The notes beneath the pieces are model-generated. The model ran no database searches, was not told where the DNA came from, and saw only the letters and a program-made list of their open reading frames with translations. Shown here in pieces: positions 32,591 through 49,831 of a stretch of 64,000 nt of DNA (positions are counted from its first letter, which is position 1; every line of letters begins with the position of its first letter). The stretch is from assembly GCA_905234275.1 (NCBI GenBank), contig CAJOHD010000003.1:12362-76361 (forward strand), in the 5' to 3' direction. This DNA comes from an uncultured Bacteroidales bacterium (GTDB lineage: Bacteria; Bacteroidota; Bacteroidia; Bacteroidales; F082). Both the position numbers and the translations under genes were made by a program.

Positions 32591-34393
32591 ATGAAAAGGC
32601 TGTTACCTTACTTGATTGTTGCATTGCTTCTTGTCTCCTGCGGCAAGATAGTTGAGGTTATTGAGCCGCCTATCTCTTTTGACGACACCCTTTTGCGCAT
32701 CGACAGCCTGATGCAGCACGATGCCTACTCGGCGCTGCAAATGCTGCTGTCATTCCGAGCAGATTCCGTCATTTCGACCGAAGCCACACCTTCCACCGTC
32801 ATTTCGACCGAAGCGAAGCGTAGTGGAGAAATCTCCTGCCATTATCAATCCATTCTCCTCTCCGAAGCCCTCTACAAAACCTACAATGTTCAGTCAAATC
32901 GCACCGAATTGCAAGCCGCAATGCACTGTTTCGACAGCCTCGCAGTGCGATATCCTGACAATGATGATTTTATAATGCTCGCCGCCCGCTCGCATTATAT
33001 GAACGGCGTTGGGTTTTATGAAAATGACAGCATTGTTGAGGCGTGCCAGGAATATCTGCATACTTTGGAGATAATGGAAGAACATTTTGATGTTGACAAA
33101 CTGACAGGTTTTAGGGCTAAGTTCATGGCGTTGACATATAACAGACTCGTTGATTTATTTTCTGATAATTATATGATGGAACCTGCAATTTATTGTGGGG
33201 GAAAAGCTTTGTATTTTTGCACGATTGAACCTACTTCAAAATATGGAATTGCCAATTCTCTCTATCAAATCGGCAATATTTATGACATGTCGAACAATAT
33301 CGACAGTGCTTTTTACTATTACAACTTAGCATTGGAAGCTTTGCCGGATGACAATAATTTTGTTTATAGAAACATTATGTCAAATTTAGCTCTGCTTAAT
33401 TATTCTTCCGGACTTGGAGCTGAATCTTCTCTTTACGACTTAAAACAAGTTTTAGAACAGACTGACGACATAGATGAAAAAACAATGCGGAATCTAGGTA
33501 TCGGTTATATTTTTAACAAAGAGGGAGTTTGTGATTCAGCGGTTTTGTATTTGAACAATGTGTTTGAGAATAATACCAATTTGGCCAAACAAATACAAGC
33601 TGCGGATTTTTTGAGGACTATATATCAAAATAACGGAGACACTAATTTAGCCAGTAAATACTCAGAATTCCTTGCTGAACACACTCTTTTAAAGTATCAC
33701 AACATAAAAGATGCCTCAAGCCTCAATGACTTATTTTATAATTTTTTAAAGGAGCAAAATGACAAAAAGCATAATCATTTCACAAAAGAAATGAATCTGC
33801 CTGTTTTTATAATATCGTTTGTAATCATAATCGCAATCACAATTGCATTGAGGTTCGGCCACAGAACAAAATTGAAAACCAAAGAAGACTTGTTCAAATA
33901 TAAAATGGCAGAAACAAGTCAAAAGCATACATTGGAGAAGGACAAACTGTTGGATGATATTGCACATTATAAGAAGCAGATAAAGTCAAAAGCTAATCGG
34001 GAAACGAATATCGAAAAATTATCCCATTTACTTAAAGAACCTATATGTAATTCAATAATCTCAGCTTGTCAAAACCATAATATCAAACGGTCATCAAAAG
34101 CAAACGATTATCCTGAACTAATACTTTCGGAAAAACAGCTTCAGGAATTATCTGACATACTTTCAAAGTATTTTTGTCATTTTGATGAAAATTTGGAAAA
34201 ACTTGGGATGAAACCTCAGCAGATTCTGATTGACGTATGCCATATGTATCTTCTCGGATTGAACAAGCAACAGATTGCAATACTTTTGAACAAAGATTAT
34301 TCATCAATAGTGAGATATGAAAAAACACTGAAAACTGTTTTTAAAACCGACAAAATAAAATCATATATCAGGCATTTAGCCATAAATGATTGA
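32591..34393 (+). CDS. TPR-repeat lipoprotein-type sensor with a single TM helix and C-terminal HTH-like module
   Basis: Lipobox LLVSCGK; TPR-like repeats (YNLALEAL..., GIGYIF...); TM helix LPVFIISFVIIIAITIALRF; coiled coil; C-terminus LLGLNKQQIAILLNKDYSSIVRYEKTL. Contains an in-frame family-A repeat at 32749..32836. Confidence 0.6.
   Translation: MKRLLPYLIVALLLVSCGKIVEVIEPPISFDDTLLRIDSLMQHDAYSALQMLLSFRADSVISTEATPSTVISTEAKRSGEISCHYQSILLSEALYKTYNVQSNRTELQAAMHCFDSLAVRYPDNDDFIMLAARSHYMNGVGFYENDSIVEACQEYLHTLEIMEEHFDVDKLTGFRAKFMALTYNRLVDLFSDNYMMEPAIYCGGKALYFCTIEPTSKYGIANSLYQIGNIYDMSNNIDSAFYYYNLALEALPDDNNFVYRNIMSNLALLNYSSGLGAESSLYDLKQVLEQTDDIDEKTMRNLGIGYIFNKEGVCDSAVLYLNNVFENNTNLAKQIQAADFLRTIYQNNGDTNLASKYSEFLAEHTLLKYHNIKDASSLNDLFYNFLKEQNDKKHNHFTKEMNLPVFIISFVIIIAITIALRFGHRTKLKTKEDLFKYKMAETSQKHTLEKDKLLDDIAHYKKQIKSKANRETNIEKLSHLLKEPICNSIISACQNHNIKRSSKANDYPELILSEKQLQELSDILSKYFCHFDENLEKLGMKPQQILIDVCHMYLLGLNKQQIAILLNKDYSSIVRYEKTLKTVFKTDKIKSYIRHLAIND
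32749..32836. repeat. family-A repeat, locus 6, ~2.5 tandem units in-frame inside the TPR regulator CDS
   Basis: gtcattccgagcagattcc gtcatttcgaccgaagccacaccttccacc gtcatttcgaccgaagcgaagcgtagtggagaaatctcc. Confidence 0.8.
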
Positions 34394-34459
34394 TATACAG
34401 CCTTTTATAGTGCAACTTTTTGCAACCGTTTTTTTTGCTTTATTAACATTTTTTTGCTA

Positions 34460-34467
34460 TATATTTG
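34460..34467 (+). promoter_or_regulatory. -7 box (tatatttg) at the head of the DUF3244-to-Rhs gene array
   Basis: 26 nt upstream of the ATG at 34494. It is the only sizeable intergenic gap (100 nt) before the array. Confidence 0.45.
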
Positions 34468-34493
34468 CATAGTTAATATCAAATTTATTTACT

Positions 34494-34868
34494 ATGAGAC
34501 GATTTGTGTTATTATTTTTAATGGTTGGTGCAACTCTATCTGTCACATTTTGCTATGCAAATAAAATTGAGGGATCAATGCAAGATGGTGATATACCTAT
34601 GATAGTAAAAAAAGGTATGAATGGCGCCGACAGATCCTCTTCTATTTCCGCATCAATTAATGGACACTCTTTAACCATGGTTTTCACCGAGAATCTCGGG
34701 CAGGTAGCTGTTGAGGTGTCGTTCGTTGGAGGTGGCGAGGTTGAAACCACTTCTCTATATACTCCATCCGGAGTAATCATCTACATTCCATACGCTGGAA
34801 GTTATATCGTAACATTCACTTTGCCTAACGGGGATGAATATTACGGAGAGTTCGAGGTGACTGACTAA
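34494..34868 (+). CDS. small secreted protein, DUF3244-like
   Basis: 124 aa with a signal peptide; SINGHSLTMVFTENLGQVAVEV...FTLPNGDEYYGEFEV matches my recollection of DUF3244. A -7 box lies at 34460. Confidence 0.5.
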   Translation: MRRFVLLFLMVGATLSVTFCYANKIEGSMQDGDIPMIVKKGMNGADRSSSISASINGHSLTMVFTENLGQVAVEVSFVGGGEVETTSLYTPSGVIIYIPYAGSYIVTFTLPNGDEYYGEFEVTD

Positions 34869-48089: not shown

Positions 48090-48115
48090 TCATGTTATTA
48101 ATAATATGATTAAAA

Positions 48116-49117
48116 ATGCCCGTCAAAGTAATAAAAATGACCACAATTAACATGAACTTTAAATACAATTCATCTAACAACGTCACCGCCTCGTTTGACC
48201 GCGGTTACACTTTGCACGAGCACTACGACGAGTTCGGCCTGATTAACATGAACGGCCGCCTGTACGACCCTCTCATTGCCCGAATGCTCTCGCCCGACAT
48301 AGTTATCCAAGACGAACAGAACTCACAAGCCTACAACCGGTATTCGTATTGCTTCAACAACCCGTTGAGGTACACCGACCCGAGCGGGTATATCGTTAGA
48401 GGCCATTACAACATCCTGAATTGGAGTTCAACCATGTATTATGATGTCGACATTAATAGAAATAATGGCAACTCTTTCAATACTGACTTGAGTGAAGGCA
48501 TTTATTCTCCGATTTATGATGTGAACGGCAATTTCTTGGGTACGGACGATGAAGGATTACAAGGCGAAGCCATTGTTATGAGAAAAGAAGACTTCAAACA
48601 AGGCATGAGTCATCAGGATGCGTTATCATTTGCAACGGATTTGGCAGAAAACAACAAGGAAGAAGCTGAAATGAGAATGAATCTGCATTATGCTTCCCTG
48701 AGGAACAGACCGGACTGGGATGGTTATTTGACTTTGTCTGAAGCTAACGAATGGTTTAGAAACGGGAATGGGCAATCACTTTATACTGATTTAAGTAAAA
48801 TTGATTTATCGGGTATTGTTTCTTTAGGTGAGAACTATGTAGGTCAAACCAAGGTAATCAACTTGTTATTTAGTAGTAATTCTTTAAATGATGGTCTTGT
48901 ATATGGGAAAGTCACCTTAAAACGCTATCCAAATCATTCTGTTAAGGCTTATGCAGATAAGTATGATTTTGACATAAAACCATGGAGTAATCCTCTAAAC
49001 TGGGGAAGAAATCTTGAAACAATAATCGGCAAAAAGAAGGCAGGAGAAGGAGTACCTTTTGAAATAAATATTTACGGATCAAAACAATTAACACCCATTT
49101 TGCCATGGATCAAATAA
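48116..49117 (+). CDS. orphan Rhs C-terminal cassette 2 (core remnant, shared linker, distinct toxin domain)
   Basis: FDRGYTLHEHYDEFGLINMNGRLYDPLIARMLSPD...NRYSYCFNNPLRYTDPSGY; its DNA is almost identical to cassette 1 over ~90 nt. Confidence 0.7.
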   Translation: MPVKVIKMTTINMNFKYNSSNNVTASFDRGYTLHEHYDEFGLINMNGRLYDPLIARMLSPDIVIQDEQNSQAYNRYSYCFNNPLRYTDPSGYIVRGHYNILNWSSTMYYDVDINRNNGNSFNTDLSEGIYSPIYDVNGNFLGTDDEGLQGEAIVMRKEDFKQGMSHQDALSFATDLAENNKEEAEMRMNLHYASLRNRPDWDGYLTLSEANEWFRNGNGQSLYTDLSKIDLSGIVSLGENYVGQTKVINLLFSSNSLNDGLVYGKVTLKRYPNHSVKAYADKYDFDIKPWSNPLNWGRNLETIIGKKKAGEGVPFEINIYGSKQLTPILPWIK

Positions 49118-49557
49118 TTAAAACCACTATAAAGATCTTATTATTATCACTTTCAATTATGATGTTTTTGACAGCCATTCTATTCTCATGTGACAATAAA
49201 TCTATTGATTTAGGCTCTCATTTTATATACGACACTGAGCATCAGTATATTTCCGGGCATCAAATTGGTATTTTATATCCCCTTATTATTAAACATCAAC
49301 CAAATAGGAAAGATATTCCTCCAATTGTTATGGATTATAAATATGATAACGATTATATTTTGGTGAAACAAAAACCAAAAATCCCATTAGAACAAATTTA
49401 TTATGATTATAATGAGATTATTTACCCATCAGGATTAGATACTACTTATTATTGGATAATTGAAAAAAAAACAGGTGAAGTTATGGGTCCACTATTATAT
49501 AAAGAGTTTTATAGTAAGTGTAAAATATATGGTATAAAGAATATTATTAATGAATAA
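49105..49557 (+). CDS. putative immunity lipoprotein for orphan cassette 2
   Basis: Overlaps the toxin stop by 13 nt; lipobox ILFSCDNK. Confidence 0.5.
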   Translation: MDQIIKTTIKILLLSLSIMMFLTAILFSCDNKSIDLGSHFIYDTEHQYISGHQIGILYPLIIKHQPNRKDIPPIVMDYKYDNDYILVKQKPKIPLEQIYYDYNEIIYPSGLDTTYYWIIEKKTGEVMGPLLYKEFYSKCKIYGIKNIINE

Positions 49558-49831
49558 CCTGCGTTTTACAGAAAACTTGAAATCTGCTGTAACAGGCAAC
49601 ACTGTCGAGCGTTACAACTTCGACGCCTGGGGACGCCGCCGCAATCCGCAGACTTTGTCATACGACAACGTCACCACCTCATTCGACCGCGGCTACACTT
49701 TGCACGAGCACTACGACGACTTCGGCTTAATAAACATGAACGGCCGCGTTTATGACCCGTTCATGTCAACCTTCCTCTCGCCCGACAACTTGCAGAAACT
49801 GCCAGTAGGGGTGTATATTCTGAAAAAGTAG
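49550..49831 (+). pseudogene. truncated Rhs core stub (third orphan remnant without toxin tip)
   Basis: ERYNFDAWGRRRNP...FDRGYTLHEHYDDFGLINMNGRVYDPFMSTFLSPDN, after which similarity stops and the ORF ends 14 codons later. No DPxG motif, toxin or immunity gene follows. Confidence 0.65.

Follow-up and report, generated by a model that had tools for sequence, protein, structure and literature searches.

In a 64,000-nucleotide stretch of DNA from an uncultured gut Bacteroidales bacterium (hereafter the window), positions 32591-49831 hold an island of 14 co-directional open reading frames (ORFs), all on the + strand. Its sequence marks the island as a locus for polymorphic interbacterial toxins, of the class that combines a signal peptide, an SpvB domain, an FG-GAP propeller and RHS repeats (TcdB/TcaC class). 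Immediately before the toxin gene stands a 151-aa ORF for a secreted protein that has one tyrosine-aspartate (YD) hairpin and a type IX secretion system (T9SS) C-terminal sorting domain (CTD). We found that members of this family, here called YD-CTD mini-proteins, and SpvB-Rhs toxins are encoded side by side in Bacteroidota whichever of the two is taken as the starting point. We propose that the Rhs toxin is functionally coupled to the T9SS through the mini-protein, a reading to which we assign a probability of about 0.55.

The layout of the island had been described in an earlier note made from the DNA letters and their translations, and that description proved accurate in position, orientation, spacing and composition. 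From 34494 onwards the gaps between ORFs are 33, 12, 22, 1, 5, 13, 3, 44, 17 and 26 nt, and two pairs overlap, by 13 and 8 nt. The GC content of the island is 0.391, against 0.462 and 0.467 in its flanks, and that of the immunity-like genes is 0.26-0.29. The -7 box named in the note is present as a sequence match, 27 nt 5' of the ATG at 34494. Searches with Pfam and NCBIfam reproduced the domain calls Por_Secre_tail, YadA_head, SpvB, FG-GAP and RHS; of three CTDs that the note had assigned to neighbours of the toxin, two were detectable (35946-37430 and 38621-39076). The helix-turn-helix that the note gave to the first ORF is putative, by position and composition.

Table 1. Features of the island and of its flanks, in window coordinates
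Feature	Position	Strand	Description
C10 peptidase with CTD	7841-8860	-	T9SS cargo gene in flank
290-aa CTD protein	17282-18154	+	T9SS cargo gene in flank
M1 peptidase with CTD	25076-27361	+	T9SS cargo gene in flank
Putative regulator, 600 aa	32591-34393	+	lipoprotein-like N terminus, TPR matches below Pfam cut-offs, one hydrophobic segment
-7-like element TATATTTG	34460-34467	+	sequence match to Bacteroidota TAnnTTTG, read from the letters
Small secreted protein, 124 aa	34494-34868	+	DUF3244-like, Pfam E 0.09, below cut-off
Lipoprotein, 343 aa, variable accessory	34902-35933	+	lipobox LSQC; no family match
T9SS cargo, 494 aa, variable accessory	35946-37430	+	N-terminal domain unassigned; type A CTD (Por_Secre_tail 2.3e-12, TIGR04183 1e-11)
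Fibre-like protein, 388 aa	37453-38619	+	signal peptide, YadA_head 4.6e-7 beta-roll, conserved C-terminal domain
YD-CTD mini-protein, 151 aa	38621-39076	+	signal peptide (..NA before Q), YD hairpin FEYDADGNRISR, ~35-aa linker, type A CTD
N-terminal toxin-gene fragment, 769 aa	39082-41391	+	signal peptide, Pfam SpvB 3.8e-17, FG-GAP_3 1.9e-23
17-bp deletion site	41375/41376	.	from alignment with sister loci L083 and L084; splits a 2202-aa ORF
C-terminal toxin-gene fragment, 1422 aa	41405-45673	+	GTG start, no signal peptide; midN, RHS shell, core, tip
Candidate immunity protein, main tip	45677-46414	+	3 nt past toxin gene, GC 0.29, signal-peptide-like N terminus; no family match
Orphan toxin cassette 1	46459-47454	+	Rhs-core remnant (..GLINMNGRLYDP..DPSGY) and HExxH tip (HEYYSH)
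Candidate immunity protein, orphan 1	47472-48089	+	position, GC 0.27, hydrophobic N terminus; no family match
Orphan toxin cassette 2	48116-49117	+	core remnant as in orphan 1; tip without family match
Candidate immunity lipoprotein, orphan 2	49105-49557	+	lipobox LFSC, weak DUF3997 match (E 0.002), GC 0.26
Rhs-core stub	49550-49831	+	translation matches core of main gene, ends before DPxG motif

The SpvB-Rhs toxin gene

The two large ORFs of the island had been read as separate SpvB-FG-GAP and Rhs genes in a TcB/TcC-like layout, and this reading had to be given up. DNA alignment with the sister strains showed that 17 bp present there, TAGTTATAATCTCGTCG, are absent from the window. An exact-sequence look-up assigned the 769-aa ORF to a cluster in which the representative, like several other members, has 2202 aa. 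The intact sister protein P0190 (2202 aa) is identical to the first window piece at 764 of 765 positions and to the second at 1421 of 1422, and connects the two via a short linker; SpvB and Rhs form a single ORF of more than 1,800 aa in 21 of 31 related Bacteroidota loci. Because the sister strains keep the 17 bp and one ORF, the native product is, on the evidence of these alignments, one polypeptide of ~250 kDa that runs from signal peptide through SpvB, propeller, midN and RHS to toxin. In the strain studied here, the piece with shell and toxin lacks a signal peptide and has just a GTG as its start codon, so that the main weapon probably does not function.

We also weighed, and rejected, a programmed frameshift at the AAAA run near 41377, as the sister strains differ by a plain 17 bp. 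The linker between propeller and midN is the point at which the SpvB-Rhs gene is interrupted in three unrelated loci, that of the window among them. L001 and L002, identical sequences from two metagenomes, have a single in-frame TGA at that linker (~12505-12525 in L001), and in L021 (9742-9955) it is split into two ORFs with 213 nt between them. These interruptions could be chance inactivation or a tolerated split.

Pfam and NCBIfam assigned RHS_repeat (7e-18), TcdB_toxin_midN (9e-5) and Rhs_assc_core (7e-15) to 41405-45673, in which the toxin tip starts at ~44669. The SpvB ORF has a signal peptide ending ASA before Q, as had been noted. An AlphaFold (AF2) model of the 769-aa part (predicted local distance difference test (pLDDT) 72, predicted template modelling score (pTM) 0.67) found its best Foldseek matches in TcdB2 and YenB, the TcB proteins of Photorhabdus and Yersinia, at E 2e-21 to 1e-16 over ~750-800 columns; on this model, the SpvB-propeller half corresponds in fold to the N-terminal half of TcB. 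A sequence search of the PDB with the RHS part returned Tse5 and the Rhs protein 7q97, both type VI secretion system (T6SS) effectors. The locus as a whole has the make-up of the TcdB/TcaC type: a signal peptide, then SpvB and an integrin-like beta-propeller, followed by RHS repeats, core, variable tip, downstream candidate immunity genes and orphan cassettes. Domain content and neighbourhood support the earlier notion of a TcB/TcC-like Rhs cocoon that would be exported through the general secretory (Sec) pathway, with no PAAR, VgrG or TcA gene nearby. The propeller model also matched the fungal lectins PVL and PAL, which bind N-acetylglucosamine (E ~1e-8), and UmbA4 of the Streptomyces umbrella toxin particles (E 1e-13); glycan binding at a surface might be a role of the propeller, which would then be more than a gate.

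Nearly all SpvB-Rhs proteins that we examined begin, according to a simple hydropathy test, with a signal-peptide-like hydrophobic N terminus. A CTD match was found on no SpvB-Rhs protein, and the Rhs protein of the window ends in its toxin. It thus lacks the C-terminal Por_Secre_tail of a T9SS type A cargo, and the CTD is found on neighbouring ORFs instead.

The class was defined in 2012, with Bacteroidetes included, as signal peptide, SpvB, propeller, RHS and variable tip (Zhang, Aravind, PMC3482391), and the available text of that paper describes the same domain order, immunity genes and orphan cassettes as in the window locus. The BC cocoons of the toxin complex (Tc) family, TcdB2-TccC3 and YenB-YenC, share the SpvB-propeller fold, followed by RHS shell, core and tip. 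The window toxin differs from them in being natively one polypeptide with a Sec signal peptide, in having no TcA and in its candidate immunity genes and orphans, and bacteria are its likely targets.

A small partner protein and its linkage to SpvB-Rhs genes

The mini-protein of the window matched Por_Secre_tail at 2.6e-12 and TIGR04183 at 1e-13. A profile built for its family comprises a signal peptide ending in A or S before Q, a YD hairpin within a few residues of it (consensus F-x-Y-D-x-[AS]-G-N-[RQ]-I-x-R), a linker of 20-50 residues and a type A CTD. Por_Secre_tail was matched by all 19 family members tested and RHS_repeat, weakly, by three of these; the N-terminal part of the profile cross-matched the RHS repeats of a Pseudomonas Rhs protein. 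The family comprises 972 proteins at E<=1e-5 in a collection clustered at 90% identity, and the named members among the matches listed are annotated as 'hypothetical' or 'T9SS type A sorting domain-containing'. In a library clustered at 50% identity there are at least 347 representatives at E<=1e-10; among the best 150 of the 347, 146 are no longer than 210 aa, and in 144 of these the motif is present, with residue 29 as its median position. We define members as proteins of at most 210 aa that have a signal peptide, a single YDxxGN hairpin near residue 30, a linker and a type A CTD, and whose genes belong to an SpvB-Rhs operon. The window protein has every one of these features. From its make-up and its setting, we propose that the mini-protein is an adaptor or tether for the Rhs toxin.

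The hairpin was also compared, by a short-motif profile, with the RHS repeats of each toxin as a possible copy of one of them, and this gave weak, scattered matches only. Mini-proteins of Flavobacteriales (L026 9350-9796, L031, L034, L036 and L046) have a CxxC directly past the YD hairpin, for example RVLCINCQ. In the two from Chitinophagaceae (L006 and L025) this position is taken by one Cys with NN after it, and Bacteroidales members have neither. The CxxC could provide a disulfide lock or some covalent linkage.

To determine how consistently the two genes occur together, we surveyed loci with relatives of the SpvB-propeller part, using one genome per species plus two metagenome contigs. The mini-gene accompanied the SpvB-Rhs gene at 26 of 31 Bacteroidota loci and at none of 13 loci outside the phylum, which came from Proteobacteria, Verrucomicrobiota, Omnitrophota, Cyanobacteria and others. 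It lies upstream of the SpvB-Rhs gene in 22 of the 26 loci, directly adjacent in all but one; in three it follows the immunity gene within the operon, and in the remaining one a contig end cuts the arrangement. For the reciprocal test we started from the mini-protein in a metagenome scan that yielded 80 loci with 81 family members, 62 of them evaluable by virtue of at least 600 nt of downstream sequence. Fifty-nine of the 62 were in an SpvB-Rhs operon, 51 with the SpvB gene as the very next gene downstream. In the other eight, SpvB-Rhs was one gene further on, past a fibre gene or masked by overlapping ORF starts; these eight include L172, in which the toxin gene was recognised through its RHS part only. 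Three mini-genes were left without a decidable neighbour. Individual look-ups agree with this pattern: both mini-gene copies in the complete genome of Chryseobacterium indologenes (CP022058.2) stand directly before SpvB-Rhs genes (2296 aa and 2222 aa), as do P0327 and P0174.

The gene upstream of the mini-gene in the window encodes a fibre-like protein whose C-terminal domain (~aa 270-388, ~110 residues) reads WPDFVF...HLP...coiled coil. Its AF2 model has a pLDDT of 66 and is confident in parts, namely the beta-roll (60-130) and the terminal helix (357-387). Foldseek returned heads of trimeric autotransporters, Bdellovibrio fibres, and YadA-like and tail-fibre proteins of phages, all with low TM-scores, and searches of PDB and viral folds gave no significant global match. 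Among 31 genome loci the C-terminal domain recurred in 10, and among 80 metagenome loci in 33; wherever the context could be assessed, it belonged to an SpvB-Rhs operon. In L001-L003 and five metagenome ORFs (447-573 aa), the fibre and the hairpin-linker-CTD unit form one in-frame fusion; these fusions argue that fibre and mini-protein act together. L027 (364 aa) and L144 (355 aa) have a different N-terminal region ahead of the hairpin-CTD unit. Operon order varies (L148, L149, L151, L154 and L165): the order mini-fibre-Rhs exists besides fibre-mini-Rhs, and in L172 (178-2831) the fibre gene is flanked by two mini-genes.

Accessory genes, toxin tips and flanks

The earlier note had tied the toxin to its upstream T9SS-cargo and fibre genes. 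In the neighbourhood survey this stood for the mini-protein and the fibre, which recur, and fell for the regulator, the 124-aa ORF, the lipoprotein and the 494-aa CTD protein, which are limited to close relatives; these first four ORFs are therefore lineage-specific accessories outside the conserved module. The 600-aa ORF is ~100% identical in the sister locus L091, has no homologue in 82 genome and relative loci, and has one in four of 80 metagenome loci. L001 and L002 have a true DUF3244 gene at the place equivalent to the 124-aa ORF. The lipoprotein gene lies in the same gene order in L003 (E 7e-45), and identity to its L091 counterpart is ~18-48% per 50-column window. A full-length homologue of the 494-aa CTD protein was found in L003 and close relatives only.

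Comparison with L091, from a sister species, revealed a mosaic. The mini-protein (90-100% identity) and the fibre C terminus (88-97%) are kept; identity is only ~18-35% in the lipoprotein and the 494-aa CTD protein (~25-35% for these two), in the replaced fibre head and in the SpvB-propeller region. The toxin is replaced too: L091 has another tip (~20% identity past the core) and another immunity gene. At the sequence level this pattern suggests cassette exchange or diversifying selection that acts on several parts jointly, beyond the toxin tip.

The DPSGE motif of the Rhs core is followed directly by a Gly-rich hydrophobic stretch, with which the main tip begins. This stretch past the Rhs core (~44690-45200; residues ~1095-1260 of the 1422-aa ORF) comprises ~160 residues, is rich in Gly, Ala and Ser and resembles a glycine zipper; the unrelated tip of the sister strain carries a similar Gly/Ala/Ser-rich hydrophobic stretch. 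Its role may lie in membrane insertion or in entry. Relaxed Pfam searches with the tips and immunity genes returned a weak Tox-MPTase2 match, to the tip of orphan 1 (E 0.005), and the weak DUF3997 match only, and assigned the main tip to no family. Tox-MPTase2 is among the Bacteroidetes tips linked to TcdB/TcaC in the available text of PMC3482391.

The small downstream ORFs are candidate immunity genes by position and composition. All three immunity-like proteins of the window carry export signals, one of them a lipobox, and L091 (17015-18109) has a TonB_C-domain lipoprotein as its immunity candidate. Some tips might therefore have their site of action in the envelope, or cells might need to protect themselves in the periplasm. 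In the wider set of loci, 11 of 21 immunity candidates, roughly one half, look exported, so no general conclusion on immunity export follows.

The flanks of the island hold housekeeping genes, peptidases (several with CTDs) and one gene for a TonB-dependent receptor. Because further CTD cargo genes lie there, we conclude that the organism uses the T9SS. The closest syntenic genome locus is in a metagenome-assembled genome from red-deer gut.

Export of the toxin

A toxin that appears to be Sec-exported without a CTD, and a small CTD protein whose gene accompanies that toxin solely in the phylum with the T9SS, led us to the idea of a borrowed tag. Cargo with a type A CTD binds to PorV within the pore of SprA, emerges with its CTD first and is afterwards either set free or attached to lipopolysaccharide at the surface (PMC10994853). 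The mature mini-protein has, besides a flexible linker and the CTD, one feature only, a repeat of the type that builds the toxin shell. The ~250-kDa polypeptide would pass the inner membrane via Sec and fold in the periplasm to a TcB/TcC-like cocoon around its C-terminal toxin. The mini-protein hairpin would then dock by strand addition on the Rhs/SpvB shell, as an extra strand pair that completes or extends the beta-sheet of the cocoon, and lend its CTD in trans, and the PorV/SprA translocon would export the complex CTD-first. After removal of the CTD the complex would be released or stay tethered to the surface, with the mini-protein as the tether. The YadA-like fibre, where present, would be an optional, strain-variable part for target selection. 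Binding between hairpin and cocoon, dependence on the T9SS, surface display and entry of the toxin into a target are steps that we infer. As a specific mechanism, docking by strand addition with a tag lent in trans is tentative, and we consider it somewhat unlikely to be right in this form.

Several observations weigh against coupling through the mini-protein. A search for a conserved docking motif on the toxin found none, and an N-terminal 'IxLxPGF' extension is absent from several loci with a mini-gene. The single hairpin is too short for a significant match to RHS_repeat (best E 0.016). A folded cocoon is possibly too wide for the SprA pore, judging from the structures of TcB-TcC and SprA, in which case export would need to proceed in an unfolded or partly folded state. 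Finally, in five of the 31 Bacteroidota loci the mini-gene is missing from the neighbourhood.

Those five loci also favour the strongest alternative, in which the Rhs protein leaves the cell without the T9SS, in outer-membrane vesicles, by lysis or by another route, and the mini-protein has some other role in the operon: it might cap or inhibit the cocoon in the periplasm, help in assembly, or be a peptide that marks self at the surface. The two-way synteny shows a functional link and leaves its nature undefined. In addition, SpvB-Rhs proteins with signal peptides, encoded without a mini-gene, occur in phyla that lack the T9SS, so another exit route must exist for the class. Against this alternative stands the complete type A CTD in 19 of 19 members, which indicates that the mini-protein itself is exported by the T9SS and makes a purely periplasmic role unlikely; moreover, the fibre fusions place the hairpin in an exported protein of surface type. 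We regard exit without the T9SS as unlikely, though as a genuine competitor to coupling through the mini-protein.

Much less probable is that the Rhs toxin is an effector of a T6SSiii that uses a distant PAAR/VgrG locus, with the CTD and fibre genes as mere neighbours. The sequence matches of the RHS region to Tse5 and 7q97 fit such a role, and T6SS Rhs effectors such as RhsA and Tse5 share with the window toxin the RHS shell, the autoproteolysis motif of the core, the variable tip and immunity. The window toxin, however, carries a Sec signal peptide and an SpvB-propeller N terminus in place of PAAR or prePAAR, which Pfam and NCBIfam did not detect, and has no link to VgrG. No T6SS gene was found in the 64-kb window, as the earlier note had said, or in the inspected flanks of related loci, and the neighbouring genes are conserved far above chance.

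The fold match of 39082-41391 to TcB subunits (E 2e-21) and the TcB-TcC order of SpvB, TcdB_midN and RHS might suggest the BC part of a classical Tc (ABC) toxin with a distant TcA and eukaryotic targets, but this is the least probable reading of all: no TcA-like gene is present in the 64-kb window, and the other ORFs reach at most 822 aa there and 1,500 aa in the 31 Bacteroidota loci, against ~2,500 aa for TcA subunits; separate TcB and TcC subunits, to our knowledge without signal peptides, are replaced by one protein that bears one; and immunity-like genes, orphan tips and tip replacement between strains are the signature of a polymorphic toxin aimed at bacteria.

Coupling of a toxin to a separate export partner can be set against other systems. 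WapA of Bacillus subtilis is a Sec-exported surface YD-repeat toxin of contact-dependent competition that has its own wall-binding domains; in the window system, the export or anchor element would be a separate small protein. The TANFOR toxins of Bacteroidetes, for which T9SS export has been proposed and not demonstrated (Jana, Salomon, Bosis 2020, PMC7073777), are likewise Sec-exported and polymorphic, lack a CTD of their own and lie in neighbourhoods rich in genes for CTD and SprB cargo. They differ in their N-terminal domain, have no Rhs cocoon and are accompanied by large SprB-repeat proteins with no dedicated mini-protein. [quoted passage not shown] That remark was made in passing and for one genus, and does not cover a neighbour family, a phylum-wide or reciprocal survey, the fibre or the fusions.

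The earlier note had called the delivery route uncharacterised. This needs qualification, as the toxin class (PMC3482391) and the adjacency to T9SS genes (PMC8125069) were already in print; it holds for the mechanism of export, which we, too, infer. The available text of PMC3482391 leaves export to an undefined 'TcdB/TcaC pathway' and mentions neither a CTD partner nor the T9SS, and a 2026 preprint still describes the link between Rhs and T9SS as uncharacterised. Searching the literature, we came across neither an experiment on T9SS-dependent Rhs export nor any account of the mini-protein family. As far as the searched literature goes, the definition of the YD-CTD family is new, as are the linkage between this family and SpvB-Rhs genes in both directions and within one phylum, its fusions with the fibre and the recognition that the two-gene look of the window is due to a deletion.

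How SpvB-Rhs toxins with signal peptides cross the outer membrane has been a pending question since 2012, and a role of the T9SS in bacterial warfare is still conjecture (2026 preprint). The linkage described here turns a vague remark on neighbourhoods into a defined, testable module: a small, widespread family that is encoded almost solely together with these toxins and confined to the phylum with the T9SS, with culturable carriers such as Chryseobacterium indologenes CP022058.2 and its two loci. If the tentative borrowed-tag mechanism is true, a ~250-kDa toxin particle without a CTD would ride on the CTD of its partner and either stay tethered to the surface or leave freely. It would be the first cargo recruited to the T9SS in trans and would provide the long-sought export route for SpvB-type Rhs toxins in Bacteroidota. 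The concept of T9SS cargo, now predicted from the CTD alone, would change, and gut, oral and environmental Bacteroidota would gain an added class of weapon.

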